Below, piece by piece: positions 3,880-45,474 of a stretch of 64,000 bases of DNA. Under the pieces are notes generated by a model. The model worked only from the letters and a program-made list of their open reading frames with translations. It was not told the DNA's origin and did not search any database. The DNA is from Candidatus Hodarchaeota archaeon (GTDB lineage Archaea > Asgardarchaeota > Lokiarchaeia > Sigyniarchaeales > SOKP01), in NCBI GenBank assembly GCA_048887225.1, contig JBHLJY010000002.1, forward strand, positions 256,001 through 320,000, read 5' to 3'. Position numbers and translations under genes: made by a program. Position 1 is the first letter of the stretch. Each line of letters starts with the position of its first letter.

Positions 3880-4704
3880 TCAATATCCCGTAATACCATA
3901 TTTTTTATAGACATGTTTGAATAATAATACTGAAAGAATGGGTCCGAATATTGTCAATATTAAAACAATTGTAAAGTGTATTGTATAGCGTGAATTCCAA
4001 ACGACATTTTCAAAACCAAAAACTAAAATTATCCTGATTGTCTCCCAGAAATAATAAAAAGGATTGAAGTATACAAAAATTTGGAGCTCCTCTGGAAAAA
4101 ATTGTACTGGGTACTTATAACAGCTGAAAATAAGAAAAAACTTAATAAAAAAGAAAAATACCTTGAATTGCCCTTCAGTTGATAACCTAAATGAACCTAT
4201 GGCCAATCCAACTGAAGCAATAAATAAACACGCAGCTAAATAAAAAATTACTGTAAATAAAATTGTCATCAATGAAGCATTAGCAATTATGAAGCATATT
4301 ATAAAAACTAAAAATAATGGAATTAAGAATGCAATTAATTCCGCAATTAATTTGCTAATCAAAACATTATAAGTATTGACAGGAGACATAAATATACCTG
4401 AAAGTGTTTTCCAATACTTTTCTCGTAAAAAGCTATTACCATAAAGAGATATTAAATCAAGAATTATAATGATAAAAACACCTGTTAGTATGAAAATAAT
4501 ATAATTCTCTGGTGTCCAAATTCCAAAAGATTTATCACCAATTTCTTCAAATATCTTATTGAAAACGAGTAATGGAATAATAAAATTTGTAAATGGTATA
4601 ATTATTAAGAGGAGAAACTTTGCTATATATCTTGATCTCAATTTGAGGTCCTTAATGACTAGAGCTTTTGTCTGCGAAATATTTTTTTTAATTTGCTGTA
4701 GCAT
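3880..4704 (-). CDS. ABC-2 type transporter permease
   Basis: KDLKLRSRY, EKYWKTL..IFMSPV, YPVQFFP, NPFYY motifs; start moved to ATG 4704 (MLQQIKK) to avoid overlap with the divergent permease and match its N-terminus. Confidence 0.85.
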   Translation of the reverse strand: MLQQIKKNISQTKALVIKDLKLRSRYIAKFLLLIIIPFTNFIIPLLVFNKIFEEIGDKSFGIWTPENYIIFILTGVFIIIILDLISLYGNSFLREKYWKTLSGIFMSPVNTYNVLISKLIAELIAFLIPLFLVFIICFIIANASLMTILFTVIFYLAACLFIASVGLAIGSFRLSTEGQFKVFFFFIKFFLIFSCYKYPVQFFPEELQIFVYFNPFYYFWETIRIILVFGFENVVWNSRYTIHFTIVLILTIFGPILSVLLFKHVYKKYGITGY

Positions 4705-4750
4705 TAAAAAGATATAATTTTTTTTTACTAAATAACTTATTTTAATTAAG

Positions 4751-5587
4751 ATGTTTAACAAGAAAGCGATCAGAAAAAACGTTGTTCAAATTTACTCATT
4801 AACTATAAAAGATTTGAAACTAAAGGGGAGATATAAGAGTGAGTTCTTTGTTGAAAATTTTTTACCATTTCTTACGTTATTTTTTCCTTTCATAATTTTT
4901 AATACACTGTTCCAACTGAAAAGTGATTTTTTTGAAGGTAGTTATTATTCCGTAGAAAATTATATATTATTTTTATTACTCGCTTACTCCGTGGAGTGCT
5001 CTTTATTTTTATTATGGTATTATAGGGATCTTTTTTATGATGAGAAATCTTGGAAAACTCTCAATGGCATAATGGTTGCCCCTGTAAGTAAATTTAATGT
5101 ATTGATCGGTTTTTTTATCTCGGGATTATTTACAAGAGTTTTCTCCATAATTTTCACAATTATTATATGCTATATTTTATTTCCCATCCCATTGGCAACA
5201 TTGATATTTGTATTAATTGTATTATTCTGCATCACATTAACCTTTGCAGGAATGGGATTTATATTAGGATTATTTGAAATTGTAAATGAGAATGTTTCGG
5301 CAAGTTTATCTATTGGAATAAGTTTTATAGCTTTAGTAAGTTGCCTATTCTATCCAATAGAAATCTTTCCTGAACAATTTCACATTATAATTTTGTTAAA
5401 TCCACTTTATTATTATTTTGATCTCTTAAAATTATCTTGGTGGTCAGGTATTAATTATCATGAAGCTATGAGGTATATAACAATAAATCACATTATAATT
5501 GTAGGATTTTGTACAATATTGACTCCATTGATTGCTTCAATTTTATTTTTAAAAATATATCATAGATATGGAGCTTCTGGGTATTAA
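4751..5587 (+). CDS. ABC-2 type transporter permease
   Basis: KDLKLKGRY, EKSWKTL..IMVAPV, YPIEIFP, NPLYY; clear paralogue of the divergent permease (both end YG..GY). Confidence 0.87.
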   Translation: MFNKKAIRKNVVQIYSLTIKDLKLKGRYKSEFFVENFLPFLTLFFPFIIFNTLFQLKSDFFEGSYYSVENYILFLLLAYSVECSLFLLWYYRDLFYDEKSWKTLNGIMVAPVSKFNVLIGFFISGLFTRVFSIIFTIIICYILFPIPLATLIFVLIVLFCITLTFAGMGFILGLFEIVNENVSASLSIGISFIALVSCLFYPIEIFPEQFHIIILLNPLYYYFDLLKLSWWSGINYHEAMRYITINHIIIVGFCTILTPLIASILFLKIYHRYGASGY

Positions 5588-5589
5588 AA

Positions 5590-6525
5590 ATGAATGAAAA
5601 TATTATTGAAACTATTGATTTAACTAAAGAATTCAAGTTAAAAGCCGGTGGAAAAATTTTAGCATTAAATCGAATCAATTTCGCAATAAAAAATGGAGAG
5701 ATTTTTGGTCTTTTAGGTCCAAATGGGGCTGGAAAAACTACTTTGGTATCAATTTTATCAACCTTACTACAACCTACTAGTGGAACTGCTAAAGTTTTTG
5801 GATTAGATGTACGGAAAAATCCTAAAGTAATTAAAAGAAAAATCGGGTTAATGTTAGGAGAGGAAATGATTTATTATCGTATGACTGGAATTGACAATTT
5901 AAAATTTTTCGCAAGGCTATATCAAATCAAAAATTATAGAGAAAAGATAAAAGAAGTAACATCAATTTTAGGAATCAATCATAAATTAAAAGAATACGTA
6001 TCCAATTATTCTCGTGGTCAGAAATTAAGAATGGCCTTATCTAGAATTTTACTAATTGAACCTGAACTACTATTTTTAGATGAGCCTTTATTAGGTATGG
6101 ATCCAAAAACTACAAGAGAATTAATTAAAATCCTCGTAGGGCTCGATAAAACAATACTTTTAACTTCTCATCAAATGCATGTTGTTCAACAACTCTGTGA
6201 ACGAATTGCATTTCTAAATCGAGGTAATATCATAAAAATTGATACAAAAGAGAACTTTATTGATATTTTAAGACATTTTATTCGAATAAGTTTCAATATT
6301 ATTGATGAAAAAAATAAAAGACAATTAAAAAAGGAATTAAACTCACTTAATTATATTAATAAAATTAGCCACAAAAAAGATGGTTTTATTATATCTATAA
6401 ATGATTATAAGTATTATCCTTCACTTTTGTCTTGTTTAGGAAAATACCCCGTTCAAAAGATTAGAGAAATAGAACCGAGCTTAGATGATGTATTTATTGA
6501 ATTATCTACTCAAAAAGATATTTAA
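5590..6525 (+). CDS. ABC transporter ATP-binding protein (DrrA/NodI-like)
   Basis: Walker A GPNGAGKT, signature YSRGQ, Walker B LLFLDEP, H-loop TSH, C-terminal EPSLDDVF. Confidence 0.93.
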   Translation: MNENIIETIDLTKEFKLKAGGKILALNRINFAIKNGEIFGLLGPNGAGKTTLVSILSTLLQPTSGTAKVFGLDVRKNPKVIKRKIGLMLGEEMIYYRMTGIDNLKFFARLYQIKNYREKIKEVTSILGINHKLKEYVSNYSRGQKLRMALSRILLIEPELLFLDEPLLGMDPKTTRELIKILVGLDKTILLTSHQMHVVQQLCERIAFLNRGNIIKIDTKENFIDILRHFIRISFNIIDEKNKRQLKKELNSLNYINKISHKKDGFIISINDYKYYPSLLSCLGKYPVQKIREIEPSLDDVFIELSTQKDI

Positions 6526-6537: not shown

Positions 6538-7686
6538 GTGAAAATCGATATAATCTTACCTTCATTTAATAAACCTGAAAAATATCAAAGATATCAAAAG
6601 GCCCAAAGATTCACTCCATTTCCATCCTTCATTGGAAGTTGGTTTCCTGTATGGTATAATAGGAAACAACTTAAAAATATGGGAGTGTCTATACGATTTA
6701 TTAATTTTTTTAATATAAACTATAAAAAACTTCGAGATCATGTAGGATTCGACAACAGAATTATAGGGAACTTAGGAAGGAGTTATGGTAAAGTTAGAAT
6801 AACGACTAAAAAAGCGATTATTCCAATATTAAAAAAAATTCGGACTAAGGCAGAACATATTATTTATTTCGACAATGGAGATGGAACAGGCCATACTCAA
6901 TTTGAAGTATTACCTTACGTTGACCGTTATTTAAAAAAACAACTATTAAAAAATCGATTATTATATTCAAATTTTCTTTATAAAAAGCGGTTATTCACCG
7001 ATTTCTATCTAAAAAAATACAATCTAAAACCAGAAGGCACCACCACTTCGCTTCATCCAATTGATCCTCAATATGAGCATAAAATAGGTTTGTCCTGGAA
7101 TTTTGCCTATAGAGACTATCGCCCCTCAAATCAAATTAATAAGATCTTTTATGGCTTTTCAAAATTTCCTTCTTTGAAATACTGTAGCCCTTATAATAGC
7201 CGAAAGTTACTTTTTTCAGCTAATTATAGTATAAAAACGGGTTCAAACTTGATTGATTTTCAGAGGAAAGAGCTTTTAAAATATCTTGAAAACAACTTTA
7301 AAGAAAATAAGGCAGTATCAATTGGGAGGATACCAAAGAAAATATATGTAAAAACTCAAAAAAATTCAAAAGCTATTTTTAGTCCATTTGGTTGGGGGGA
7401 ATTATGTTATCGAGATTTTGAAATTTTCATTTCAGGTGCAGCTTTAATAAAACCCAATGTTGATCATATAGTTACTTGGCCGAAATTATATATAAAAAAC
7501 AAAACTTATTTTCCAATATCGTGGGAAGTTGAAAAATGGGATGATGAAATACCACATATTTTGAATGACGAGAATCTTTTATTAAAAATAGCGATAAAAG
7601 GTCAAGATTCATATAAAAGCCTGTGGACACAAAAGGGGAGAAAAAAGTTCTGTGAGCACTTTATCGAGATGGTAAGTCCAAATTAA
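6538..7686 (+). CDS. Putative GT-B glycosyltransferase (exostosin/Glyco_trans_1_2-like C-terminus)
   Basis: GTG start; SPFGWGELCYRDFEIFISGAALIKP motif, followed by KIAIKGQ. Confidence 0.65.
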   Translation: MKIDIILPSFNKPEKYQRYQKAQRFTPFPSFIGSWFPVWYNRKQLKNMGVSIRFINFFNINYKKLRDHVGFDNRIIGNLGRSYGKVRITTKKAIIPILKKIRTKAEHIIYFDNGDGTGHTQFEVLPYVDRYLKKQLLKNRLLYSNFLYKKRLFTDFYLKKYNLKPEGTTTSLHPIDPQYEHKIGLSWNFAYRDYRPSNQINKIFYGFSKFPSLKYCSPYNSRKLLFSANYSIKTGSNLIDFQRKELLKYLENNFKENKAVSIGRIPKKIYVKTQKNSKAIFSPFGWGELCYRDFEIFISGAALIKPNVDHIVTWPKLYIKNKTYFPISWEVEKWDDEIPHILNDENLLLKIAIKGQDSYKSLWTQKGRKKFCEHFIEMVSPN

Positions 7687-8501
7687 GTATTATTAAAAAG
7701 AGATTTTTTTATTAAGATATCTAAATTAAAAGGACGGTATTTGGATGTTTTATTAAATAACTGTTTTAATTTTTCGTATTCGTTATGATTATCTACATCT
7801 AGCCATATCGTATCGGGAAAATCTAAATAAGAAACATTAAAATCTAAATTAATCGCTGAAAGTAAAATATCAGATACTCCAAACTTATCATCAATCTTTT
7901 CGATAAATTGAGATATTCTTTTTATAGTTTTAGTTTTCATAAGAAAGGCGCCCATATCAAGGCGGTTATAATTTTCAATTTGTTTACCAATTTCCTTGAT
8001 TTGGGCATTATATCCAAGAACCTTGGTACAATCCTCTAAATCATAGTGCCCTATAATTTTTATTGGATCGGTAGCTAAGACAATATCTTGATTATTATAT
8101 TTTTTAATTAATTCTTCATATACGTTAACAGAGAAGATGTGGTCAGCCATAGATAATATAAAAAATTCAGAATTTACATTTTTAGCACCTAAGAAGAGGC
8201 TATAGCCATTTTCTCTTTCAATGTTGTCGTTTTCAATGAAATTTAAACTTATATTTGTTGTTTTGAAAGATATGTTTTTTAAAAAACTGAAACATGATTT
8301 TTTTATCTCGGTTGTATCAGCATCCATATCTACAATTAAATTAATTTTTTTAATACCAGCTTTAATCATTCCTACGATTATATAATTTAATATATTAGAC
8401 CTTGCAAAAGGTAATAGATACTTCTTATACGAGCTATCTCGAAAATCGAATCGACTCGCACATCCCGCAGCAAGAATAATACTTTCAACATTCATATTCA
8501 A
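7683..8501 (-). CDS. CTP:inositol-1-phosphate cytidylyltransferase (IPCT)-like nucleotidyltransferase
   Basis: ILAAG.ASR, ERENGYSL, FILSMADH, DCTKV, IGKQI, DMGAF, WLDVD follow the archaeal IPCT motif series as I recall it; directly downstream of two MIPS genes. Confidence 0.8.
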   Translation of the reverse strand: MNMNVESIILAAGCASRFDFRDSSYKKYLLPFARSNILNYIIVGMIKAGIKKINLIVDMDADTTEIKKSCFSFLKNISFKTTNISLNFIENDNIERENGYSLFLGAKNVNSEFFILSMADHIFSVNVYEELIKKYNNQDIVLATDPIKIIGHYDLEDCTKVLGYNAQIKEIGKQIENYNRLDMGAFLMKTKTIKRISQFIEKIDDKFGVSDILLSAINLDFNVSYLDFPDTIWLDVDNHNEYEKLKQLFNKTSKYRPFNLDILIKKSLFNNT

Positions 8502-8537
8502 TTAAGATGTCTAATAGTTTCTACTTTAAAAATTAAT

Positions 8538-9677
8538 TTATCTCTCACGTTTACCTTCTATGAATTCTAGAACCCATTCCTTGGCTATAAAATCCGATGG
8601 AGGTTGAATATGGGGGTGTTTAAAACTAAAGGAACTTATGCTTTCTAGTCGCCCTGAAATTCTTCTATCCAAAGCTAGTTTCATAACCCGCACGACATCC
8701 AATATAACTCCTGCGGAATTGGGGGAATCCTCAACCCTGATTTTTACATCCATTACTAAAGGTAAGTTCCCATATGTCGTACCATCTATTCTAATATAAC
8801 AAATCTTTTTATCTTCAAGAAAAGGTACATAATCACTCGGACCAATTCTGCAATTAATAGGATATGGAAGAACAGAAGTTACTGAGGTTGTTTTTGATTC
8901 ACGCTTAGTTTTTAAGCGATTTTCCAATTTCATATTATAGAAATCACCATTGCCTCCGATGTTTAATTGATAAGTATCATTCACTATTACACCCCTATCC
9001 AGAAACATCTTTGCCAGAACTCGATGTGTGATAGTTGCCCCTACTTGAGATTTAATGTCATCTCCTGCGCATGGTAGTCCATTCTTTTCAAATTCAGCAA
9101 CCCAGTCCTTATCTCCCTCGAGCTTTTCAGATATAATAAATTCTGGAATTCCATTAACAAATCCACAACCAGCATCGATAGCTGCTTGAGCATATAATCT
9201 TGAAGCGTTATAGCTTCCGACCGGCAGAAGATTTACTAAGATCTCTGCCCTATTATCTCGTAATGTTTGGGCAATGTCAACAGGTCTAATAACACTTTCA
9301 TCATATGCCTTGAAATAATCTAATGTTGATAAACGCTCATCTTCAGTTTTATAACATCCATCAGAAATTGGTCCGGGATAACAAAGCGCTCCTGTTTTTG
9401 GCATATCGTTAGGTTTTACAATTGGTTGACAACAATTAGGTTCAGCATATATAGCATCTGATATATCTTTATTAATTTTTGTTGTTGAAACATCAAATGC
9501 AGCAACTACTTTAATATGACGAGGCAAATATCCCTCAATACTTGGATTCATTAAACCCATTATATACATATCTTCCTCTTTAATATTCTTATAATATTCA
9601 ATTCCTTGTAATAAAGCAGAAGCACAATTTCCAAGACCAGCTATTGCAATACGAATTTCTTTTGAATCGTTTTCCAT
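8538..9677 (-). CDS. ino1: myo-inositol-1-phosphate synthase
   Basis: GLGNCAS, LPVGS, GDDIKSQVGAT, QLNIGGNGDF, KRESKT, DKK, DSPNSAG, FKHP; all canonical prokaryotic MIPS motifs. Confidence 0.95.
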   Translation of the reverse strand: MENDSKEIRIAIAGLGNCASALLQGIEYYKNIKEEDMYIMGLMNPSIEGYLPRHIKVVAAFDVSTTKINKDISDAIYAEPNCCQPIVKPNDMPKTGALCYPGPISDGCYKTEDERLSTLDYFKAYDESVIRPVDIAQTLRDNRAEILVNLLPVGSYNASRLYAQAAIDAGCGFVNGIPEFIISEKLEGDKDWVAEFEKNGLPCAGDDIKSQVGATITHRVLAKMFLDRGVIVNDTYQLNIGGNGDFYNMKLENRLKTKRESKTTSVTSVLPYPINCRIGPSDYVPFLEDKKICYIRIDGTTYGNLPLVMDVKIRVEDSPNSAGVILDVVRVMKLALDRRISGRLESISSFSFKHPHIQPPSDFIAKEWVLEFIEGKRER

Positions 9678-9681
9678 GATT

Positions 9682-10746
9682 TCAACCCTCCTGTTTTATT
9701 CCTAATATAAATGATGCTAAATTTTTATTTGCCTCTGATGGATTCTTAGGATATTTTGGTGGATTTTTAAATCCATACGCAGAAATTTCATCTATTGATC
9801 CTGCGACACCCTGATTAATTGCGACTTTTGTAGCACGAATGACATCTGCTAATACAGAACCACCATTAGGACCATCTTCAGTTTGGATCTTAATATCCAT
9901 AATTACCTTAGATCCTAAGAAACCATTTCCAACAATCCAGAGCATAGAGTTCCGTTTATTCTTAAGGAAACCCACCCAATCAGAAGTTCCGGCCACAATT
10001 GGAGCATCAATATTTAAAGCTCCCGCTACGGACTTACTTTTTATTTCTCGTTTTATTTCTCGCGCTCGATATATTGTATTTAAACTCTCAGCACCACCCC
10101 CAACATCGAGAGCATAACTTTCTTTTATATCAATCCCCCGATCCAACAATTCTTGAAGAATTAATTTATGCAATATTGTCGCTCCAAATTGGTCTTGTAA
10201 ATCATCTCCAATTAGAGGCAATTTTGCATCATAGAATTTTTGAGCAATTTCTTTATCGGTTGCAATACTTGTAGGTGTAGCATTAATAAAGGCACAACCA
10301 GCTTTAAGGGCTTCGCTTGCATAAAATCGTACAGCATTGTCTGCTCCAGAAGGTAATAAGCATAAGACAATCTCCGCCCCGGTCGATATTAAGTATTCAG
10401 ATATATTTATTGATGGTAGTTTTGCTGGTTTAATATTAAATTCTGTTTCCTTAATGGCTCCATCTAAAACATTGCCCATAACAACGATGATATCATAATT
10501 TTTACGGAAATCAACCTTAATATCCAATTCATTTTCTCTAATTGCTTTGTAAACCTTTTTACCAACCTTTCTCTCCGAGATATCAACAGCTGCGACTATC
10601 TGAATATCTGAAATATGATAACCAGCTAACGTTGGGCGAAGCAATCCTCCATTATTCAATCCCTCACGGTAATATTCAATACCTTGGATTAACGCAGATG
10701 CAGCATTACCTATTCCAACAATTGCTAACTTAATTTTTTCTGGCAT
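9682..10746 (-). CDS. myo-inositol-1-phosphate synthase-like protein (divergent paralogue)
   Basis: GIGNAAS, LPSGA, GDDLQDQFGAT, DVGGGAES, KREIKS, DGPNGG, FKNPP; same fold with altered active-site motifs. Confidence 0.85.
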   Translation of the reverse strand: MPEKIKLAIVGIGNAASALIQGIEYYREGLNNGGLLRPTLAGYHISDIQIVAAVDISERKVGKKVYKAIRENELDIKVDFRKNYDIIVVMGNVLDGAIKETEFNIKPAKLPSINISEYLISTGAEIVLCLLPSGADNAVRFYASEALKAGCAFINATPTSIATDKEIAQKFYDAKLPLIGDDLQDQFGATILHKLILQELLDRGIDIKESYALDVGGGAESLNTIYRAREIKREIKSKSVAGALNIDAPIVAGTSDWVGFLKNKRNSMLWIVGNGFLGSKVIMDIKIQTEDGPNGGSVLADVIRATKVAINQGVAGSIDEISAYGFKNPPKYPKNPSEANKNLASFILGIKQEG

Positions 10747-10754
10747 ATGAACAC

Positions 10755-10777
10755 TTCACTGTGAATTTCAGTATAAA
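10755..10777 (-). promoter_or_regulatory. Candidate archaeal TATA box plus palindromic operator upstream of the MIPS-MIPS-IPCT operon
   Basis: Minus-strand TTTATA at 10777-10772 (26-31 nt before ATG 10746); 5-1-5 inverted repeat TTCAC-T-GTGAA at 10755-10765 between it and the start. Confidence 0.35.
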
Positions 10778-10907
10778 TTTGATTATTAAGAAATCAAAAT
10801 AAAATTTTCTCTATTGGATGAAAACATAAAGAGGAAAAAAATATAAAACATCATTTAATAAAAATAAATAGAAGAGAAGGATATAATGTTATAAATTTAA
10901 CAATCTC

Positions 10908-13352
10908 ATGCCAAAAATAACCAAGATATTTAATCGAATTTTGGATTTGATTTCCAAAAGGATTGCCATGAATATTAGGCACTTTTTTAGCCTGATAATC
11001 TCAAAATTTTATAGTAATAAAGTTGACGAGAATTTAATTGTCTTTGGATCTACGAACGGGAATGCTTTTTCTGGAAATTCTAAAGAACTATTTTTATATC
11101 TAACAGAAAACTCAAATTATCACTGTGTCTGGTTTACCTCATCAGATATAATTCTGAATGATTTAAGAAAAAAGGGATATCATGCAGAGTCAAATCGTAA
11201 GATTGTAAAACCGGTAAAATTCTTAAAAAGAGCCAAATATATCTTTATCACCCATGGATTCGGGGATGTTTTATTAGTAGATTTCTCACCAGATACTACT
11301 GTGGTTCATTTAGACCATGGTTCTGCATTAAAACTCATTGGATACGGTTTGAAAGCTTCATTTTTAAATGTGTTTCAGAGGAAAGTCCATGAGTATTGGA
11401 ATAAAAGAATTAGTTATTTAACGGTTTGTTCAGAGGAAACAAAAAGAATCAAGCGATTTAGTTATGATTTACCCTCTGAAAGAGTAATAATTACGGGATA
11501 TCCAAGAAATAAAACTCTTGAAGAAAACTCAATTGAAGCTCAAAATGAGCTAAGGGAGAAATTATATATTGAAAATAGTGAGGAAATATTATTATATGCT
11601 CCTACTTTTAGGGATTATCCCATTCAGAGCCCTCTTAATGGTGATTTTTTAAAAGAATTAGATGAATTTTTATTAAGAAATAATAAAATTCTTTTATACA
11701 AACCTCATCCATTTGAGGAAAAAATAGATCTTAACAAATATCAAAATATTAGATCAATCGACCCGAATGTTGATATTAATGATTTACTTGTAATTGCCGA
11801 TTTGTTAATAACAGATTATTCTGGTGTATTTTTTGATTATCTTCTCACTTTAAGACCAATTCTTTTTTTTCCTTATGATTTAGAGAAATATACAGGAGCA
11901 CGAGACTTTTTTTATGATTATAACACCCTTGTTCCAGGCCCAATTGTTAGGACTGGAGAACAGTTAATCTCAAAATTAGAAACTATGCAACAATGGAGCG
12001 TGGAATATTTAGAATCAAGATTAAAGGCTCGAGATAAATTTAATAAATATCACGACGGAAGAGCAATACAAAGAATCGTAGAACTTTTAAACCTTAAAAT
12101 AGAAAAACCAATAAGACCTATATTACCTCCAAAAGTTAGGATTGAGCCACTCATTGGAAGATTTAATAGGACCTTCAATAATGTTCTTGAATTTGTATCC
12201 AAAAAAGTTGGAATGAATATAAAACATATTTTATCTTATCCCTTGTCCAAGCTATTTAGTAAAAAGGTATATGATAGCCTCTTAGTATTTGGTAGTACCA
12301 ATGGTCAAGCGTTTGCAGGTAATCCGAAGGTTGTCTTTCAATACTTATGTGAACATTCAAATTATAAGTGTGTATGGATTACTGGTTCTGAAAACGTCTA
12401 TAGAGATTTAAAAAGACGAAATTATAATGTCGTCTTGAATAAAAATATAATTAAGACAATAAAAACTCTCAAAGCAGCCAAATATATTTTTATTTCACAT
12501 GGATTTGGAGATATTTTTTATATCGATTTTTCACCAAAATCAAGATTAATTCATTTAGCACATGGAATATCCTTTAAGAAAGGAGGTCATGATTTAGAAT
12601 CAACCTTCATGCCTTTCGTTGAGAAGTGGATGAATAAAATGCTTGTCAATCATATGAATCTTTTGATTGATTCTTCAGAAGAGACAAAACGCCATAAAAT
12701 GACAAGATTTAGCCTCCCTACTGATAGAATTGCGGTAACTGGTTATCCAAGAAATGATATTTTAATTAACCATACTAAAGATTTAGATAATAGTATTAAG
12801 AAAGGATTAGGAATCAAAAAGAATTATGAAGTGATATTATACGCTCCAACGTTCAGGGACTACAGCTATACGCCTCCTTTAAGCAAACCATTTCTCGAAA
12901 AACTAGAAGAATACCTCATAGCTGAAAACAAATGTTTTTTATATAAACCGCATCCATTTGAAAAGCAACTTGATTTAGGTGATTTTAAGAATATTAAGTC
13001 AATCGATCCTAACGTTGACATCCTTGATTTATTAATAATTTCCGATATATTGATAACAGATTATTCTAGTGTATTTTATGACTATCTCCTCACAGTAAGA
13101 CCAATAATCTTTTTTGCAGAGGATTTAGATAGATATACCAATGTAAGAGATTTTTATTATGATTACGAATCATTCGTACCTGGACCAGTTGTAAAAACCA
13201 GCGACCAATTAATTGAAGTTCTAAAATCTTTTAATCAATGGGAACCAAAATATAAAGAAAGAAGAAAACAAATGCGAGATCAATTTAATAAATATCATGA
13301 TGGAAGGTCTACAGAGAGAATTGTTGATCTACTCGAATTAAAGACGTTTTAA
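10908..13352 (+). CDS. CDP-glycerol:glycerophosphotransferase (TagB/TagF) family protein with two complete tandem domains
   Basis: Two copies of FGSTNG..F.GN, HG...K, TGYPRN, LYAPTFRD, KPHPFE, LITDYS..F.DY, PGP, HDGR. Confidence 0.92.
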   Translation: MPKITKIFNRILDLISKRIAMNIRHFFSLIISKFYSNKVDENLIVFGSTNGNAFSGNSKELFLYLTENSNYHCVWFTSSDIILNDLRKKGYHAESNRKIVKPVKFLKRAKYIFITHGFGDVLLVDFSPDTTVVHLDHGSALKLIGYGLKASFLNVFQRKVHEYWNKRISYLTVCSEETKRIKRFSYDLPSERVIITGYPRNKTLEENSIEAQNELREKLYIENSEEILLYAPTFRDYPIQSPLNGDFLKELDEFLLRNNKILLYKPHPFEEKIDLNKYQNIRSIDPNVDINDLLVIADLLITDYSGVFFDYLLTLRPILFFPYDLEKYTGARDFFYDYNTLVPGPIVRTGEQLISKLETMQQWSVEYLESRLKARDKFNKYHDGRAIQRIVELLNLKIEKPIRPILPPKVRIEPLIGRFNRTFNNVLEFVSKKVGMNIKHILSYPLSKLFSKKVYDSLLVFGSTNGQAFAGNPKVVFQYLCEHSNYKCVWITGSENVYRDLKRRNYNVVLNKNIIKTIKTLKAAKYIFISHGFGDIFYIDFSPKSRLIHLAHGISFKKGGHDLESTFMPFVEKWMNKMLVNHMNLLIDSSEETKRHKMTRFSLPTDRIAVTGYPRNDILINHTKDLDNSIKKGLGIKKNYEVILYAPTFRDYSYTPPLSKPFLEKLEEYLIAENKCFLYKPHPFEKQLDLGDFKNIKSIDPNVDILDLLIISDILITDYSSVFYDYLLTVRPIIFFAEDLDRYTNVRDFYYDYESFVPGPVVKTSDQLIEVLKSFNQWEPKYKERRKQMRDQFNKYHDGRSTERIVDLLELKTF

Positions 13353-13357
13353 TTTAA

Positions 13358-14512
13358 TCAAGCTATTTTTTCAATCTTCTTATTGTATAAATCGGTAAAA
13401 ATCTCTTTCCATTTTATAATTGCGATTTCAATGTTCATCTCTCGCTTAACATATTTGTAAGCATTCTCGCTGAAATTTGTCCATGCCTCTGGATTTTTGA
13501 GCAAGTGATTCAAATTCTCTATTAATGTGTTGAAATTATTATTACAAAACAGACCAACTTGGTTTTTTCCTATGAAATTGTCAGGATTGATATTTAAGCT
13601 TAAGATTGGTGTTGAAGAATTCATTGATTGATTGAAAGAATTAGGAAAACCTTCTGTTAATGATGTATTCACAAATACCTTCGCATTTTTATAATAATCA
13701 TCCACCTCAGAAAAAGGTATACCTGGTATAAATTGAAGATTTTTGACCTTATTTGCAGTATTCTTAATATATTCAAAGTATTTAATGTCGTCTGCAGCCG
13801 GCATTATCATAATAAATTTTTCGTTAGGAAAATTTCTCGCCAAATCGATAAATACTTCTGGTCTTTTCCATTTTTTACCCCTTGCAACCCAAAGAATAAA
13901 ATCTCTTTTCTTGGTATCAGTTTTTTTGATAGAATAACTATTCCGAATTACTAAAGAATCAAAATTAAAGGTTCTTTTTAGAATATCTCGATCTTCCTCA
14001 TTTTGAACTACAATATAATCCACTTTTTTAAATCCTAAATAAAAGAATGAATATCTTCCACTTCCTTTTAAAATTTTTTTCAATAAATATAGTTTATTTA
14101 CTTGATGTTGATGTTCTGTTCGATGGATATGAACTTTTTTGTTTAACCTACAATAAAAATTAGTAAAGCCCACATATTTAGATAAATTAGCTGTGAAATA
14201 AATATCAGCATTTATTTGAGCCAGTTTCTTGTAAAATTTAAAAAATGAAAGGATATAGTTTTTAAAATTTTTCTTCTGTGAATGTCCTTTAATTACTTTT
14301 ATGTTATTGTATATTTCAAGAGATTTTTGACCGAAATCAGCTACCAAAAAATATATCTCGAAATTGTCATCCTTTACTAATTCATTGGCAATATTATATA
14401 AATCTACTTCTGCTCCGCCTATTTTTGCTTTTGAAGCCGGATTAAAGACCGCATAGGTGAACGCTTGTACAAAACAGATTTTAATCTTCCTTGTCATTTT
14501 AAACTCTTTCAA
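13358..14512 (-). CDS. Glycosyltransferase family 4
   Basis: IGGAE, KRPE, NTSLTEGFPNSFNQS. Confidence 0.9.
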   Translation of the reverse strand: MKEFKMTRKIKICFVQAFTYAVFNPASKAKIGGAEVDLYNIANELVKDDNFEIYFLVADFGQKSLEIYNNIKVIKGHSQKKNFKNYILSFFKFYKKLAQINADIYFTANLSKYVGFTNFYCRLNKKVHIHRTEHQHQVNKLYLLKKILKGSGRYSFFYLGFKKVDYIVVQNEEDRDILKRTFNFDSLVIRNSYSIKKTDTKKRDFILWVARGKKWKRPEVFIDLARNFPNEKFIMIMPAADDIKYFEYIKNTANKVKNLQFIPGIPFSEVDDYYKNAKVFVNTSLTEGFPNSFNQSMNSSTPILSLNINPDNFIGKNQVGLFCNNNFNTLIENLNHLLKNPEAWTNFSENAYKYVKREMNIEIAIIKWKEIFTDLYNKKIEKIA

Positions 14513-15324
14513 ATTTTTCTAAAAACTGCCTCAAATGAAGGCACATTCCATTTATGATATTCTTCATAAAAGATAAATTCCAATGAAGTTTCCTTGTTAT
14601 TAATAAATTTGAATTTTTCTCCTTTTTGGTTTTCCAGAAATAATTCATTATTTTCAACATAAATATCATATTTATGCATACCAGTCCAAGATTTTCTTGA
14701 TCCCTCTCTTGTATTACTACACACAAAGAAGAATCCCCCTTTTTTAAGTAATTGATATCCATTTCTAAAACATTTTAGCGGATTCTCAGCATGATCTAAA
14801 GAATTTTGAGCAAATACTATATGAAAACTTTCTTTTTTAAAAGCTTTTAATAGATCTTCACCTTTCAATTTGATTGGAACAATTGGATAAGTATATTTTA
14901 ATTTTTTCATCATTCTTTCATAGATATCCGCCAATGGGTCAATTGCTGTAACTTTTATTAATTTTCTATCGACCCAATAAGATAGATTTGAATTAGGACC
15001 CGAACCAATTTCCAAGGTTTCTAATAATGATACATTGAATTTTTCTCTTAACTTTGATACCTCATCTCTTATCCCGGGAGCAAATGCCGCTGGATTTTTT
15101 CTACAAGATTCTAAAAAAGCAATTGGATCTTCTTTTTTTATAAAAAATAAACTTTCATAACTATAAACTTCGGAAGCTATGTTTGTTTCTCGTCTTATAT
15201 ATGATCTGAGTGAAAAGTATAAAGATTTCAAAAGTAGTTTTAAATTAATAAAGCTTATTTTGTTCTCTTTAATTGCTAGAGCAATAAACTCGTTAAATTT
15301 CTTAGATACGCCAGTTCGTTTCAT
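14509..15324 (-). CDS. Class I SAM-dependent methyltransferase
   Basis: LEIGSGP, AIDPLA, SFHIVFAQNSLDH, LKKGG; 4-nt overlap with the downstream GT4. Confidence 0.85.
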   Translation of the reverse strand: MKRTGVSKKFNEFIALAIKENKISFINLKLLLKSLYFSLRSYIRRETNIASEVYSYESLFFIKKEDPIAFLESCRKNPAAFAPGIRDEVSKLREKFNVSLLETLEIGSGPNSNLSYWVDRKLIKVTAIDPLADIYERMMKKLKYTYPIVPIKLKGEDLLKAFKKESFHIVFAQNSLDHAENPLKCFRNGYQLLKKGGFFFVCSNTREGSRKSWTGMHKYDIYVENNELFLENQKGEKFKFINNKETSLEFIFYEEYHKWNVPSFEAVFRKI

Positions 15325-15431
15325 ACTATTACGATCCGATGAATTTTTATGAATGTTCTTTTTATAATATCTTTTAATTCTATGCTAAAATAAATTTTTA
15401 ACTTATTAGAGATTTTTGAAATCATACTATT

Positions 15432-16328
15432 ATGAGAAATCAAAAAGTTATTGTTATAAATGGATTTCAGAGAGGTGGGACTAATATCATTTACAATATT
15501 TTTCAATCTCATCCATTAGTTTGCTCACCAAATAATCTTGAAACAGGTGAAATAATTTCACAAAATTATCGATTATATAAATATCCTAAAATTAAATTAA
15601 TCAAATATTTTATAAAACGCTTAAAATTAAAGCTCTATGACATATTAAATAGTAAATTCATTTTAAATTCATTTTTAGTTCTGATATTTGGAAGCTTTTA
15701 TGATAAAATCTTTTATAAATATAAAAAGATGAATTATACAGATCCATTCAATAAATATAAATATGAAAATGAACCTTATAACAAAAAAGAAGTTAAAAAC
15801 AGCGTAATTTGTTTGAAATCCATCCACAACGATATTAGGTTAACGGCCTTCCTCTCTAAAATTTATAAAAATATCTTTTTCATAGGATTAGTAAGAAATG
15901 GTTATGCACTATGTGAAGGTTGGATTAGAAGAGGAAAAAATGCTGAATATTGCGGTTTGAGATATCGAAAATTCTGTGAAATGATGATTAAGGATAAGAA
16001 GAAGTTTAAAAATTATAATATCATAAAATTTGAAGACGTCTTAAAGAATCCATTTGAGATGGCATCAAGGCTATATAAATTTACAAAGCTAACACCAATT
16101 TCTTTAGAAAAGTTAAGATTTCAAGTAAAAAAGATCTTAACTGTCGATGGACACAAAATAAAATTTGGAAAAGAAAGAGCTAAATATTGGTTTGATCATG
16201 AAACTGTAAACGATTTATTTGATCCAAATATTAATAAAATTCAAATTCAAAACCTTTCAGCAGAGAATCGAAAGATTTTTGAAAAGAATACTAAATCGAT
16301 ATTAAAATATTTCAATTATTTAACCTAA
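15432..16328 (+). CDS. Sulfotransferase (PAPS-dependent family)
   Basis: 5'-PSB loop NGFQRGGTN; 3'-PB-like LVRNG; IKFEDVLKNP. Confidence 0.8.
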   Translation: MRNQKVIVINGFQRGGTNIIYNIFQSHPLVCSPNNLETGEIISQNYRLYKYPKIKLIKYFIKRLKLKLYDILNSKFILNSFLVLIFGSFYDKIFYKYKKMNYTDPFNKYKYENEPYNKKEVKNSVICLKSIHNDIRLTAFLSKIYKNIFFIGLVRNGYALCEGWIRRGKNAEYCGLRYRKFCEMMIKDKKKFKNYNIIKFEDVLKNPFEMASRLYKFTKLTPISLEKLRFQVKKILTVDGHKIKFGKERAKYWFDHETVNDLFDPNINKIQIQNLSAENRKIFEKNTKSILKYFNYLT

Positions 16329-16353
16329 ATAACATTAAAAACTTTTATTAAAA

Positions 16354-17616
16354 ATGAGAATAGCCCTAATCACTAACAATTTCTTACCAAAAACAGGCGG
16401 AATCACAAATGTTATGGTAAATGTTAGTGGAAAACTGAAAAAATTAGGAGAAAAAGTCTCAGTTTTAAATAAAACTCATGATGAGAAAGAGCGGTTATGT
16501 TATAAATTGTTATCAAATACTACATCCTTGAAAGGAATAGTTGTTCATAATGTAAAGTTCTTTTATTTCTTATTTTTTCTATTCTTAAAAATTATATTTT
16601 CTTTTAAAGAAATTACACTTAAAGATAAATTGAGGTTAGCATCATTTTATTGTTTTTATCCTAAATTTATCGTCAGGAGAACTATTTCACTTAAAAACTT
16701 AGTTTCACATTTCAAAAAACAGAAATATGATATTGTATTAAGTGGAACTTCAGATATCTCTCTATTATATAGTTTTATTATAGCAAAGTGGTTTAGGCTC
16801 CCGCTAATTACAATTGCACATGGTGATGATTTTCTCAGAAGATATCCTTTTAAAATTAAAGAGTATATCTTCCAGAACATCCAAAAACTTGTTGTGACTA
16901 ATGAATTCATGCGAAAACTATTTTTAAAAATCTATGATGTCAATCCTGTTAATGTAAATGTAATACATTTAGGTGTAAATATTGAAGAAAGCCAAGTAAA
17001 AGAATCAATCATTGACTTAAGAAAAAAATTCAATATCTTATCAGATGAGTTTATAATTCTTACTGTAAGTCGTTTTTATCCCAGAAAAGGATTTGAAACA
17101 GTTTTAAAAGCAATTAGGCTCATAAAAGATGAAAATCCGGGCATTAAAATTAAATACTGCCTAATAGGGAGAGGAGAGGAAGAGAAAAGAATTATAAACA
17201 CAATCAAGAGTTTAGAACTAAACGATGATGTGAAATTATTAGGTCAGGTTGATGACATTACTAAAAATCAATTCTACAAATTATCAAATGTTTTTGTTTT
17301 AGTTCCTGAAATAAGTAAAAACTCTATCGAAGGTTTTGGTATAGTTTATACTGAAGCGAATTATTTCCACATACCAGTAATTGGATCAAGGTCTGGAGGA
17401 GTAAGAGTAGCAATTGAAGATGGTAAAAATGGTTTTCTAATTGACCCCAAAGATGTAGAAAATTTGAAGATCTTAATTATGAAATTATATGAAAACGAAC
17501 AGCTCCGTAAAAAATTAGGAGAATATGGCCATAACAGAGTTATAGATTTATTTAATTGGAGCAAAAATGCTTTAAAATATAGAGAATTATTAAAAAAAAC
17601 AAAAGAAGAATTTTGA
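16354..17616 (+). CDS. Glycosyltransferase family 4 (PimB-like)
   Basis: FLPKTGGI, AHG, SRFYPRKG, EGFGIVYTEA, SGGV. Confidence 0.92.
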   Translation: MRIALITNNFLPKTGGITNVMVNVSGKLKKLGEKVSVLNKTHDEKERLCYKLLSNTTSLKGIVVHNVKFFYFLFFLFLKIIFSFKEITLKDKLRLASFYCFYPKFIVRRTISLKNLVSHFKKQKYDIVLSGTSDISLLYSFIIAKWFRLPLITIAHGDDFLRRYPFKIKEYIFQNIQKLVVTNEFMRKLFLKIYDVNPVNVNVIHLGVNIEESQVKESIIDLRKKFNILSDEFIILTVSRFYPRKGFETVLKAIRLIKDENPGIKIKYCLIGRGEEEKRIINTIKSLELNDDVKLLGQVDDITKNQFYKLSNVFVLVPEISKNSIEGFGIVYTEANYFHIPVIGSRSGGVRVAIEDGKNGFLIDPKDVENLKILIMKLYENEQLRKKLGEYGHNRVIDLFNWSKNALKYRELLKKTKEEF

Positions 17617-17624
17617 TATAAATA

Positions 17625-18863
17625 ATGGGCACAAAATTATTAGAATTAATCGCATCAAAAATAAAAATAATCAAATTCGCAAAAATCTTAAGGATAAATC
17701 CAAAATTCTTCTTAGATATTGTTCTTTTCCACTTTTCAAAACTTTTTAGCGCAAAAATCGATGATAAATTAATTATCTTTGGCTCAGTTGGTGGAAAAGC
17801 ATTTATTGGGAATCCGAAATATATATATCAGTACTTAAAGGAAAATACAGATTACAAGCTAATTTTCTTTGCCCAATCCAAAAACGTGAAAAACAAATTA
17901 GAAAACGAAGGTATAAAGGCAATTAACAGACATTCTATAAAAGCGATTAAAATATTGAGAAAAGCACGAGCTGTTTTTGTTTCACATGGATACGAAGATG
18001 TTTTACCGATTAAATTCTCACCAAAATCATTAGTAATTTATACTGGTCATGGGGGAGGTATCAAGATAAAAGGAAAGAATCCATATCATCAAAAATATAT
18101 CTATTCTAATTGGACAAAAATCTTGAGAGTTAAATTACGTGAGCATGAATATTTAGATTATGTTGTAAGCCCTTCTGGTTCAGGAAAGCCTCTAAAAATA
18201 TGGGCAAATATGTTACAATACCCTTTGGACAGGATATTGCCAACGGGATATCCTAGAAATGATATCTTTTTTGCTGACGACCCTTCATTAAAGACAAAGT
18301 TTAAAGATCGTTATGACATACCAAAAAATATTCAAAGAATAATATTATATGCCCCGACATATAGGGAGATTTTCTCAACAAAAGAACCTTTTACTACTGA
18401 AGATATGAAAAAATTGGATGATTTATGTAAAAACACCAATTCTATCCTTTTAATTAAGGGTCATGTGAAAGAAAAAATCATTAAATTCAAAGATTTAGAA
18501 AATATTAAAAAAGTTATTGGAGATTCAGACACGCAAGAACTCTTATATATTACGGATGTTTTAATAACAGATTATTCAACAATTTTTCATGATTTTCTGC
18601 TTCTAGACCGCCCAATCTTATTATACACTTATGATTATGATGAATACGTTAGTAAACGTGGAATTTATTATGATCATCTAGAAGAAGTCGCTCCTGGCCC
18701 TTTAATATATAACTTCAATGATCTATATGAGGCGCTAAAGAATATTGATAAAATAAAAGCTGAATATGACAAGAAAAGAATTGAATTACGAAATTACTTT
18801 AATAAATATAACGATGGGAACTCTTCGGAACGACTTTTGAGATTTTTAAAGCTAATAAATTAA
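17625..18863 (+). CDS. CDP-glycerol:glycerophosphotransferase (TagB/TagF) family protein, single domain
   Basis: FIGNPK, GHGGGIK, TGYPRND, LYAPTYRE, KGH, LITDYST, PGP, NDGNSSER. Confidence 0.92.
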   Translation: MGTKLLELIASKIKIIKFAKILRINPKFFLDIVLFHFSKLFSAKIDDKLIIFGSVGGKAFIGNPKYIYQYLKENTDYKLIFFAQSKNVKNKLENEGIKAINRHSIKAIKILRKARAVFVSHGYEDVLPIKFSPKSLVIYTGHGGGIKIKGKNPYHQKYIYSNWTKILRVKLREHEYLDYVVSPSGSGKPLKIWANMLQYPLDRILPTGYPRNDIFFADDPSLKTKFKDRYDIPKNIQRIILYAPTYREIFSTKEPFTTEDMKKLDDLCKNTNSILLIKGHVKEKIIKFKDLENIKKVIGDSDTQELLYITDVLITDYSTIFHDFLLLDRPILLYTYDYDEYVSKRGIYYDHLEEVAPGPLIYNFNDLYEALKNIDKIKAEYDKKRIELRNYFNKYNDGNSSERLLRFLKLIN

Positions 18864-38940: not shown

Positions 38941-39714
38941 ATGAGTAAAGGATTAATCCCAAAAATGTTTCAGAAGTATTTTAATCGCTTTGAGATTAAA
39001 TATAGAATTTCTATTCCTGAACGGGATAATTTAATCGACAATTTCAGACCATTCATGGAATTAGATCCTCATGTTAAGAAGGGCTATAAAAATTATGAGG
39101 TAAGAAGTGTTTATTTTGATTCTCCACTTAAAAGAGCATATTTTGAAAAAATTTATGGGATTAAAGTTAGGGTTAAGTTGCGAATTCGATATTATCCTGA
39201 TTTTCAAGTTGGTGAGAATGAATTAGTTTTTATTGAACTTAAACGTAAAATTAATGATAATGTTTCAAAGAGCCGGGTTTTAGTTCCATTTGCAGATTCA
39301 TTTGAAATTATTAACAGCCATACCCAAAAAGCGAAAGAATTTTATGAAAAAGCCTCTCAAGAGGATAGAGAAAAATTAAATGATATATGGTATCTTTATG
39401 ATAGATATAATTTAAAACCAGTTTGTATGGTGTGGTATCATAGACGACCATTCATTTCTAAGATTGAACAAGGACGATTTAGAATAACATTTGATACCAG
39501 CGTTAAGGTTCGAAACCATAATTTTGATTTGCATATGGGAGGGATTGGTGGTAGATATGTAATACCACCTCAAATATGCATAATGGAAATAAAATTTACT
39601 AATATGATCCCTGCTTGGGCAATTCGTATAGTACAGAAGAATAATGTAATCCAAGAAAAGATGAGCAAATTTGCCAGCGGATTAGAAAGAACAAAAATTC
39701 TGAGCATCTTATAA
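38941..39714 (+). CDS. VTC domain (polyphosphate polymerase, CYTH/TTM fold) protein
   Basis: RFEIKY, VRSVYFDS, KLRIRYY, FIELKRK, RITFD, IMEIKF, SKF. Confidence 0.92.
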   Translation: MSKGLIPKMFQKYFNRFEIKYRISIPERDNLIDNFRPFMELDPHVKKGYKNYEVRSVYFDSPLKRAYFEKIYGIKVRVKLRIRYYPDFQVGENELVFIELKRKINDNVSKSRVLVPFADSFEIINSHTQKAKEFYEKASQEDREKLNDIWYLYDRYNLKPVCMVWYHRRPFISKIEQGRFRITFDTSVKVRNHNFDLHMGGIGGRYVIPPQICIMEIKFTNMIPAWAIRIVQKNNVIQEKMSKFASGLERTKILSIL

Positions 39715-39751
39715 TAAAGTTTTTTTATAATATTTAATAGGTTTTAATAGA

Positions 39752-40519: not shown

Positions 40520-40554
40520 TTTTTTTTACAACATATTATTCATACTTATGGAAG

Positions 40555-44708: not shown

Positions 44709-44736
44709 TTAATATAATTGATATTTATTTTAAATA

Positions 44737-45474
44737 ATGAAAATTATAATACTTGCTGCGGGCAAGGGGGAGAGACTTTTTCCTCTCACTAAAAATACTC
44801 CAAAACCTTTAATCGATTTAGGAAATGGAGAAACATTATTAGAAAGGCAGCTGCAATATTTATATAAGTCTAATGTTATCGATGAGGTTATTATTGTTAT
44901 AGGCTATTTACACGAACAAATTGAATCAAAATTAAAAAGTTATAAGACTGAACTGAAAATAAAAACTGTATATAATCCGTTCTATGAAATATCTAATAAC
45001 CTCATTACTCTTTGGTTAAGCAAATATGAAATGAATGAGGATTTTCTAATTGCCAATGGAGACAATATAATAGCCAGTGATGTTATTAGAGATTTAGTCA
45101 ATAAAACAAATGAAGGAATTTATGTAACAATCTGCTATAGAGATAAATATAGCGAAGAAGACATGAAGGTAAATTTAGATCCTAATAAAAAAATTCTAAG
45201 AGTAAGTAAAGAAATTAAGAATGGAGATGCAGAATCTGTTGGACTTGTTAAAGTCTCGGGTGAAAAATTTAGAAAAATCTATAAAGATATCTTGGAAGAA
45301 TTAGCGAGAAATAAAGATTATTTAAATAAATTTTGGTTGGAGACTTTTAACATCTTAGCAAATAAAGGTGTTGAAATTAATTCATTTGAAATAGATAAAG
45401 ATAAATGGCGAGAAATAGATTTTCATTTTGATTTACATGATATAACAGAAATGATCAAGAAATTCAAGATTTAA
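44737..45474 (+). CDS. Phosphocholine cytidylyltransferase (LicC)-like nucleotidyltransferase
   Basis: ILAAGKGERL, PKPL, YNPFYEISNN, NGD, EDMKV, ESVG, WREIDF. Confidence 0.85.
   Translation: MKIIILAAGKGERLFPLTKNTPKPLIDLGNGETLLERQLQYLYKSNVIDEVIIVIGYLHEQIESKLKSYKTELKIKTVYNPFYEISNNLITLWLSKYEMNEDFLIANGDNIIASDVIRDLVNKTNEGIYVTICYRDKYSEEDMKVNLDPNKKILRVSKEIKNGDAESVGLVKVSGEKFRKIYKDILEELARNKDYLNKFWLETFNILANKGVEINSFEIDKDKWREIDFHFDLHDITEMIKKFKI

Follow-up and report, generated by a model that had tools for sequence, protein, structure and literature searches.

A candidate CDP-inositol route to TagF-type polyol-phosphate transfer in a Lokiarchaeial glycan island

A 64-kb stretch of contig JBHLJY010000002.1 (positions 256,001 to 320,000; assembly GCA_048887225.1, Candidatus Hodarchaeota archaeon, class Lokiarchaeia), referred to below as the window, carries a gene for a cytidylyltransferase resembling the inositol-phosphate cytidylyltransferases (IPCT) in one operon with two MIPS-type genes, beside genes for TagF-like polyol-phosphate transferases. 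The G+C content is ~27%, and the host assembly measures 3.27 Mb, is 98% complete and contains no SSU rRNA. The whole window is a glycan island with many GT4 glycosyltransferase genes, CotH kinases, a VTC/DUF4956 pair and three paralogous proteins of 12-14 transmembrane (TM) segments. The minus-strand operon has the order MIPS2like, MIPS1, IPCT, with gaps of 4 bp and then 36 bp, where MIPS1 denotes the canonical MIPS at 8538-9677 and MIPS2like the divergent paralogue at 9682-10746; TagF3 is the third TagF, at 17625-18863. Clade A is the Asgard IPCT clade that holds the product of 7683-8501, and clade B is its sister Asgard clade. Genomes of our sample of 151 Lokiarchaeia are labelled G### (G000 is the source genome), further metagenomic contigs P####, and loci or proteins L###. 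The central features are as follows.

7683..8501, minus strand: clade-A IPCT-like CTP:inositol-phosphate cytidylyltransferase, 272 amino acids (aa) (N-terminal half of NF041135, PDB matches, tree placement)
8538..9677, minus strand: canonical myo-inositol-phosphate synthase (MIPS1), 379 aa (PF01658, 105 bits; TIGR03450, 355 bits; 1gr0, E 6.5e-90)
9682..10746, minus strand: MIPS2like, divergent MIPS paralogue, 354 aa, first gene of the operon (PF01658, 51.6 bits; 1gr0, E 1.2e-58)
10747..10907, no strand: divergent intergenic spacer of 161 bp separating the double TagF gene from the MIPS/IPCT operon (open reading frame coordinates)
10908..13352, plus strand: double TagF-like polyol-phosphate transferase, 814 aa (PF04464 (Glyphos_transf), 523.9 bits over two stretches, E 2.6e-157)
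17625..18863, plus strand: TagF3, TagF-like transferase with the loop TGHGGGIK (PF04464, 247 bits)

An earlier note, made from the letters of this DNA alone, had described these genes and their shared 161-bp spacer; open reading frames and family profiles place every one of them where it said, with TagF3 starting 4.3 kb beyond the double TagF. It had also read the 7683-8501 product as IPCT-like, and this was supported by profiles, structures and phylogeny. NF041135 (IPCT/DIPPS) was the best NCBIfam family at 101.8 bits, aligned over profile positions 2-221 of 419, which form the IPCT half, and the runner-up family reached 33.7 bits. The score of 101.8 bits falls below the curated equivalog cut-off of 580 bits, which is uninformative for a stand-alone IPCT because it was set for the two-domain Thermococcales IPCT/DIPPS fusion. 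The sole PDB matches at E<=1 were 4jd0, the T. maritima inositol-1-phosphate cytidylyltransferase (PMC12275187), and 2xme/4mnd, the A. fulgidus IPCT. Alignments to 4jd0 and 2xme showed conservation of the G-loop Arg, the following Lys and the Asp of the (A/G)D motif; in 16 Asgard sequences R17 is near-invariant and K27 and D120 are invariant, residues that are named in PMC12275187 and numbered here independently of that paper. Motifs common to the solved IPCT structures are likewise invariant in the 16 Asgard homologues, and clades A and B share 52 invariant columns. The true start of the protein is probably the first Met, a few codons inside the called frame. A reading of the IPCT genes of G001 and G053 as pseudogenes, on account of an in-frame TAA, was rejected: open reading frame calling gives intact frames of 259-261 aa, so that the TAA simply ends the gene and the search had read past it.

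In the IPCT tree the Asgard sequences were monophyletic (100/100), with clade A (95/91) and clade B (90/86) as sisters, and the other members of the group to which the 7683-8501 product belongs are tied to MIPS and a DIPPS-type enzyme. The non-Asgard relatives, at 22-34% identity, came from Aquificota including Aquifex aeolicus, Desulfurococcales, Pyrodictiaceae, Archaeoglobaceae and similar lineages, groups known as producers of the heat-protective solute di-myo-inositol phosphate (DIP). Clade-A IPCT genes adjoin MIPS in G005, G018, G053, G112 and G149 and on contigs P0006, P0015, P0021 and P0025, as they do within one operon here.

The enzyme that accompanies the IPCT differs between the clades. 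Scanning GTDB species representatives with the Asgard IPCT alignment gave 78 loci, each inspected over 10 kb on either side. No CDP-alcohol phosphotransferase lay within 10 kb at any of nine clade-A loci, and a TagF gene was the immediate neighbour at six; the other three are two contigs shorter than 4 kb and G001, whose double TagF lies 14.5 kb off in the same island. At clade-B loci, a CDP-alcohol phosphotransferase, either a protein of 206-224 aa or the C-terminal domain of one of 440-469 aa, adjoined the IPCT in 27 of 28 cases, usually with MIPS, and TagF in none. Among the non-Asgard relatives it was fused or adjacent at 37 of 40 loci, and TagF again was found at none (0/40). TagF has thus taken the place of exactly the DIPPS-type gene that is the usual neighbour at other IPCT loci.

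This linkage of ino1, ipct and tagF, of which the earlier note knew a single instance, is far beyond chance. Adjacency of clade-A IPCT and TagF spans at least five species in four Lokiarchaeial genera, usually with the MIPS pair, and the module of MIPS2like, MIPS1, IPCT and TagF occurs in varied order and orientation in G000, G018, G053, G112 and G149 and on P0021 and P0025, both of which read IPCT-TagF-MIPS-MIPS. A four-gene set kept together through such varied arrangements argues for selection on the linkage rather than for a single inherited arrangement. Counted over the 151 Lokiarchaeia, full-length TagF was present in 36 genomes and an IPCT-like gene in 34; TagF was found in all nine genomes with clade A versus 27 of the remaining 142.

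Classical-looking clusters of clade-B IPCT, MIPS and CDP-alcohol phosphotransferase were seen at L046:7896-11932, L071:8753-12588, L073:9665-13040 and 25 more loci (L096-L123), often with a gene for a xylose-isomerase-like TIM-barrel protein; their phosphotransferase has ~210 aa or is a C-terminal domain in a protein of 440-469 aa. Judged by gene content, they appear to encode a pathway of DIP or inositol-lipid type, and the archaea that carry them are not known to be hyperthermophilic.

The two MIPS genes bear on the substrate that the cytidylyltransferase would activate. MIPS1 retains the motifs GDDIKSQ, GGNGDF, DKK and DSPNSAG; those of MIPS2like are altered to GDDLQDQ, GGGAES, NKR and DGPNGG. 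The general scheme may therefore be right with a different polyol: the clade-A enzyme would activate a modified cyclitol phosphate made by MIPS2like, or glycerol-1/3-phosphate, and TagF would transfer that group. MIPS2like has lost conserved active-site residues (GDDIKSQ to GDDLQDQ; GGNxDF to GGGAES), its second-best PDB match, 6k96, is a five-membered cyclitol-phosphate synthase, and its gene always comes first in the pair; enzymes with different substrates belong to the IPCT family, and G002 and G004 retain IPCT and TagF with no adjacent MIPS. We nevertheless regard another polyol as unlikely. The 52 columns invariant between the clades include the motifs of solved IPCTs, and the loci of clade B bring MIPS together with a DIPPS-type enzyme. 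Canonical MIPS1 lies in the same operon here and is adjacent at eight or more clade-A loci, and the loops of the IPCT-linked TagFs are not of the glycerol type. Finally, MIPS2like orthologues are common in genomes that have no IPCT at all, which implies that MIPS2like is not dedicated to the clade-A pathway. Such orthologues, at 64-73% identity, were observed in sister families lacking IPCT, and the MIPS2like-MIPS1 tandem occurs in many Lokiarchaeia. Clade-A genomes without the MIPS pair still have a housekeeping-type MIPS, and the source genome has a third MIPS of this type on another contig; in G001 all three MIPS types stand in tandem (L086:9981-13456).

Membership of the double TagF and TagF3 in the TagF family was clear from PDB matches to TarL (8va1) and TagF (3l7i) at E ~1e-32. 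The double TagF consists of two complete Glyphos_transf domains, an N domain at ~11013-12089 (donor loop LDHGSALK) and a C domain at ~12264-13334 (loop LAHGISFK). Each of the three TagF domains in the window has both catalytic His, and the C domain was aligned to TagF H444 and TarL H300, which belong to the invariant pairs of the family (H444/H584 in TagF, H300/H433 in TarL). Cryo-EM (cryo-electron microscopy) of TarL assigned the loop just past the catalytic His to the donor polyol, with PL marking glycerol-phosphate transferases and GAF, one residue longer, marking ribitol-phosphate transferases (PMC10901376). The loops in the window, SAL, ISF and GGI, are of neither the PL nor the GAF type; ISF aligns with TPL of TagF, and its Phe with F305 of TarL.

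The loops also followed the IPCT across Lokiarchaeia. The TagD-linked Lokiarchaeial TagF has the loop TWHGTPIKK, and many other TagFs have TWHGTP(I/F/M)K. The IPCT-adjacent TagFs of G112, G053 and G149 and a second copy in G018 carry TWHGVQNKR, and LAHGISFKK is found in G018, in G004 and in the C domain of the double TagF, with LDHGSALKL in its N domain. The glycerol-type loop Pro was absent from all 17 TagF domains of the nine clade-A genomes. The 22 domains that have it, the TagD-linked one included, all come from genomes lacking clade A, and the VQN and ISF loops occurred in clade-A genomes only; since the genomes are related, this pattern does not amount to a statistical test, and it spans two TagF lineages and four genera. 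The double TagF falls in a clade labelled 'x2', with 100/100 support in the TagF tree. Two further TagFs of this clade, in G150 and G104 (loops IVL and ITL; L172:3-2422 and L173:1442-3542), occur in genomes without any IPCT; each adjoins a protein of 225-268 aa weakly similar to CDP-alcohol phosphotransferases, and G150 also has a TagD equivalog.

TagF3 stands somewhat apart. On the TagF tree it joins, with 100/100 support, copies from G001 and G004 located beside phosphonate cassettes, which in G001 comprise phosphoenolpyruvate (PEP) mutase, aminotransferase and nucleoside triphosphate (NTP) transferase, so that TagF3 may use another donor. That donor could be CDP-inositol or the product of a LicC-like enzyme encoded at 44737-45474, and the membership of TagF3 in an inositol pathway is uncertain.

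No CDP-alcohol phosphotransferase, TagD or TarI/IspD scored above noise in the 64-kb window, in agreement with the earlier note, and none of a DIPPS-type partner, a TagD equivalog, TarI/IspD or PEP mutase was found when the search was extended to the whole 98%-complete genome. This cluster holds every TagF domain that the genome encodes, three in all. The three PF01467 proteins of the genome are PPAT, NMNAT and L021, a 148-aa protein of RibL/TagD fold. L021 gave the best genome score to the TagD equivalog model TIGR01518, 38.6 bits against a cut-off of 165 bits, and its orthologues occur in 37 of 41 relatives irrespective of TagF; we judged it unlikely to be TagD and, from its sequence, probably RibL. 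TagD equivalogs were present in only 3 of the 151 Lokiarchaeia, and the G079 copy directly adjoins TagF. The four PF01066 CDP-alcohol phosphotransferases, one of the archaetidylserine-synthase type and three AIPS-like, appear by family to be lipid-type or housekeeping enzymes. L024, the AIPS-like protein closest to DIPPS (73 bits to the DIPPS half), was rejected as a hidden DIPPS: its orthologues are present in 135 of 151 genomes irrespective of IPCT, and on comparison it lies outside the group of clade-B-linked phosphotransferases. L031 was rejected in the same role, its occurrence being uncorrelated with IPCT. L024 and L021 are themselves neighbours, ~1.1 kb apart (G000:C7:39511-41681), a pairing kept in most Lokiarchaeia examined, with the same contigs and spacing in G001, G002, G006, G009, G018 and G019. 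TagA/WecG (PF03808) and LCP ligase (PF03816) were not found in the genome, which indicates that this is not a transplanted bacterial teichoic-acid pathway.

TagF genes elsewhere in Lokiarchaeia are accompanied by other activating enzymes. In several genomes TagF stands beside a Fom1-like fusion of PEP mutase and NTP transferase, a thiamine pyrophosphate (TPP) decarboxylase, an iron alcohol dehydrogenase (Fe-ADH) or class-V aminotransferase, and a LicC-like NTP transferase; in some Lokiarchaeia its neighbours are an NTP transferase and a major facilitator superfamily (MFS) transporter. As TagFs are typically paired with cytidylyltransferase cassettes, a rule by which the neighbour supplies the donor looks general, and this supports the IPCT as donor supplier at clade-A loci. 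Phosphonate cassettes with TagF were observed at L050:3281-9197, L085:11136-19007, L052, L055, L059, L067, L174-L176 and L180, the PEP mutase fusion having 564 aa. Their gene content suggests phosphonate-decorated glycans or TagF-like enzymes that use CMP-phosphonate donors.

IPCT and TagF might instead be mere neighbours, CDP-inositol being used by a CgeB-like glycosyltransferase, a multi-TM protein or a lipid enzyme, and TagF drawing CDP-glycerol or another donor from an unrecognised enzyme such as L021 or the LicC-like 44737-45474 product. L021 does have the TagD fold, the LicC-like cytidylyltransferase lies 26 kb off in the same island, the nearest relatives of TagF3 flank phosphonate cassettes, and at some clade-A loci TagF is not nearby. 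Moreover, phosphonate-cassette TagFs often retain the glycerol-type TP(I/L) loop, which means that adjacency does not always predict the pocket. Yet TagF is the sole consistent neighbour of clade-A IPCT over four genera despite reshuffling, and it stands just where other IPCT loci have the DIPPS-type gene. The Pro-type loop never occurs in clade-A genomes, and the distribution of L021, found in relatives with or without TagF, does not follow it. Coincidental neighbourhood is therefore, in our view, quite unlikely.

We consider CDP-inositol to be the probable TagF donor for an exported surface glycan, if only by a modest degree. In the proposed pathway, MIPS1, possibly with MIPS2like, would convert glucose-6-phosphate to inositol phosphate, from which the clade-A IPCT-like enzyme would make CDP-inositol with CTP. 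The TagF-like GT-B phosphotransferases would then transfer inositol-phosphate to a hydroxyl of a glycan, probably lipid-linked and made by the neighbouring GT4 and CgeB-like glycosyltransferases, with release of CMP. At minimum the ISF-loop C domain of the double TagF would carry out this transfer, and its N domain would probably do so too. The predicted product is inositol-phosphate in phosphodiester linkage, forming glycosyl-inositol-phosphate repeats or caps; methylation or sulfation may follow, and export would be by the adjacent ABC-2 transporter of the TagGH/Wzm-Wzt class. By analogy with the TagF-like capsule polymerases, alternating action of glycosyltransferase and TagF could yield poly(glycosyl-inositol-phosphate), and the data fit a single cap equally well. 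More tentatively, and as less likely than not, we suggest a teichoic-acid-like anionic polymer with inositol-phosphate repeats, for example poly(glycosyl-inositol-phosphate), made by TagFs in which a pocket for CDP-inositol evolved twice (ISF and VQN).

Several observations weigh against this proposal. First, the IPCT family also holds phosphocholine, phosphoglutamine and phosphoglycerate enzymes (PMC12275187), so that family membership alone does not fix the clade-A substrate, and the deep position of the Asgard group among IPCTs is unsettled on the tree, where LicC-like long branches intrude. Second, the linkage is incomplete: contigs P0006 and P0015 carry MIPS-IPCT with no TagF within 7 kb, the TagF of G001 is 14.5 kb from its clade-A IPCT, G002 and G004 hold IPCT-TagF without adjacent MIPS genes, and the MIPS pair is also found far from both IPCT and TagF. 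Third, in TagF and TarL a Trp is stacked on the catalytic His, and this residue is missing from the double TagF and TagF3 (LDHG, LAHG and TGHG); the IPCT-linked type of G112, G053 and G149 retains it (TWHG). Lastly, the IPCT-linked TagFs fall into two lineages and cassette type is not monophyletic, changing often along the TagF tree, so TagF adjacency may not map simply onto donor. The earlier suggestion of CDP-inositol as the TagF donor gains from the IPCT group, the lack of DIPPS, TagD and TarI, the linkage and the loop, and loses ground for TagF3, which may use another donor; its inventory of cytidylyltransferases held for the IPCT-like gene and overlooked the LicC-like gene at 44737-45474.

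The glycan setting of the proposed transfer is given by the genes around the core cluster.

3880..4761, minus strand: ABC-2 type permease, TagG/Wzm class (PF12698/PF01061)
4751..5587, plus strand: second ABC-2 type permease (PF01061, 26.2 bits, slightly under the 26.9-bit cut-off; six hydrophobic segments)
5590..6525, plus strand: ABC transporter ATPase with DrrA-type C-terminal domain, TagH/Wzt class (PF00005, 96 bits; PF13732)
6538..7686, plus strand: soluble CgeB/Glyco_trans_1_2-like putative glycosyltransferase, convergent with the IPCT gene (homologues with PF13524, PF24785 or PF03016)
13358..14512, minus strand: GT4 glycosyltransferase (PF00534, PF13439; orthologues beside TagF/IPCT in G002, G001 and G018)
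14509..15324, minus strand: S-adenosylmethionine (SAM)-dependent methyltransferase (PF08241; kept in G002, G001 and the P0025 contig)
15432..16328, plus strand: sulfotransferase-like protein (PF13469, 30.6 bits; orthologue adjoins IPCT in G001 and on the P0021 contig)
16354..17616, plus strand: GT4 glycosyltransferase, 8 bp 5' of TagF3 (PF00534, 137.9 bits)
44737..45474: LicC-like cytidylyltransferase (best PDB match 1jyk, 67 bits)

The permease at 3880-4761 has a counterpart next to the cluster in G002, at 97% identity, and others close to TagF in G112, G078, G096 and G068. The CgeB-like protein at 6538-7686 itself had no Pfam match at E<=1e-3; its homologues are named glycosyltransferase or CgeB, and its gene adjoins the IPCT in G002 and G005 too. 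The GT4 gene at 13358-14512 is a conserved neighbour of double or single TagF.

These neighbours bear on a further alternative, in which the TagF-like enzyme replaces DIPPS to make a small soluble or lipid-bound inositol phosphodiester, either a solute resembling DIP or an inositol phospholipid, with no glycan decoration. The established fates of CDP-inositol are only DIP synthesis and, as proposed, inositol lipids (PMC9246714), and the P0006 contig has MIPS2like-MIPS1-IPCT in a non-glycan setting. Most IPCT-TagF loci, however, sit amid GT4 genes, an ABC-2 exporter, and methyl- and sulfotransferases; characterised enzymes of the TagF family use glycan, polyol or lipid-linked acceptors; and Lokiarchaeia keep a separate clade-B IPCT with a DIPPS-type route for the classical chemistry. 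Such a small product appears very improbable to us.

Other parts of the island may contribute further groups. The LicC/PntC-like cytidylyltransferase belongs to a cassette at 43368-46583 with a glutaminase-less Asn-synthase-like ligase and an AXE1-type esterase, between CotH kinase genes, and this cassette could supply another CDP/CMP-activated group. Four CotH-kinase genes, a gene with a VTC domain (polyphosphate polymerase-like) and a DUF4956 membrane gene occupy 32152-33456, 38941-43213 and 46633-47898. The three paralogous proteins of 664-670 aa (1863-3872, 25028-27022 and 36774-38786), with 12-14 hydrophobic segments and no Pfam match, are candidates for GT-C-like transferases, polymerases or ligases; homologues adjoin TagF or IPCT elsewhere (L048, L052, L059, L061, L063 and L166).

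TagF-family enzymes are known with CDP-glycerol and CDP-ribitol as donors, and to our knowledge the envelope chemistry of Asgard archaea is essentially unknown. The cluster is predicted to combine TagF-type polyol-phosphate transfer with a new donor, in a host group new to such a system. The consumers so far documented or proposed for CDP-inositol belong to the CDP-alcohol phosphotransferases, acting in DIP synthesis and, as proposed, in inositol lipids (PMC9246714). The earlier note knew of no TagF described as using CDP-inositol, and our full-text literature searches likewise found none: no paper connects a TagF-type enzyme with CDP-inositol, reports genes for TagF-like proteins from Asgard archaea or presents an inositol-phosphate teichoic or capsule polymer. 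A CDP-inositol-dependent TagF, if confirmed, would widen the chemistry of both enzyme types and imply an anionic glycopolymer of a new kind; a polymer of inositol-phosphate repeats, if real, would give CDP-inositol a third biological fate and add a new class of envelope polymer to the archaea, in the prokaryotes most closely related to eukaryotes. The envelope chemistry of these archaea bears on ideas of cell-cell contact in eukaryogenesis. The set lends itself to testing, with one small soluble cytidylyltransferase and three TagF domain types that have distinct donor loops, and the TagD-, phosphonate- and IPCT-linked TagFs within one archaeal class form a natural specificity panel.

Compared with the DIP pathway (MIPS, IPCT and DIPPS), the first two steps are alike, MIPS being followed by a cytidylyltransferase of the same family, and clade B keeps the full classical set. 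Clade A differs in having no CDP-alcohol phosphotransferase fused, adjacent or specifically associated; it stands beside a TagF-like GT-B enzyme within a glycan island, and hence a glycoconjugate is predicted in place of a compatible solute. The proposed inositol-lipid cluster of Bacteroidetes, with an NTP transferase, a CDP-alcohol phosphatidyltransferase and a HAD protein, is similar in that MIPS is clustered with an NTP transferase proposed to make CDP-inositol; its consumer, however, is a lipid-acting CDP-alcohol phosphatidyltransferase, and that pathway is itself unconfirmed (PMC9246714). Wall teichoic acid synthesis (TagD/TarI, TagB/TagF/TarL and TagGH) shares PF04464 enzymes with both catalytic His and an adjoining dedicated cytidylyltransferase, and the TagGH-class ABC-2 exporter, two permeases and an ATPase, is alike at family level only. 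The differences are the archaeal host, a genome without TagD, TarI, TagA and LCP ligase, the predicted CDP-inositol donor, loops that are neither PL nor GAF, and the loss of the Trp before the catalytic His in all three domains. In fast-growing mycobacteria, lipoarabinomannan bears phospho-myo-inositol caps, phosphodiester-linked to a surface glycan; the host there is bacterial and we know of no TagF or CDP-inositol route, so the likeness is in product only. The next-best structural relatives are the Gram-negative capsule polymerases, whose TagF-like domains (Cps3D, 8qoy; Hib Bcs3, 8a0c) are related at E 1e-21 to 2e-19. Those enzymes team with a glycosyltransferase to make poly(glycosyl-polyol-phosphate), and here each TagF adjoins a GT4 gene; they are multi-domain fusions with CDP-glycerol or ribitol/ribose donors, whereas in the archaeal cluster glycosyltransferase and TagF are separate genes or TagF is duplicated, and the predicted donor is a different one.

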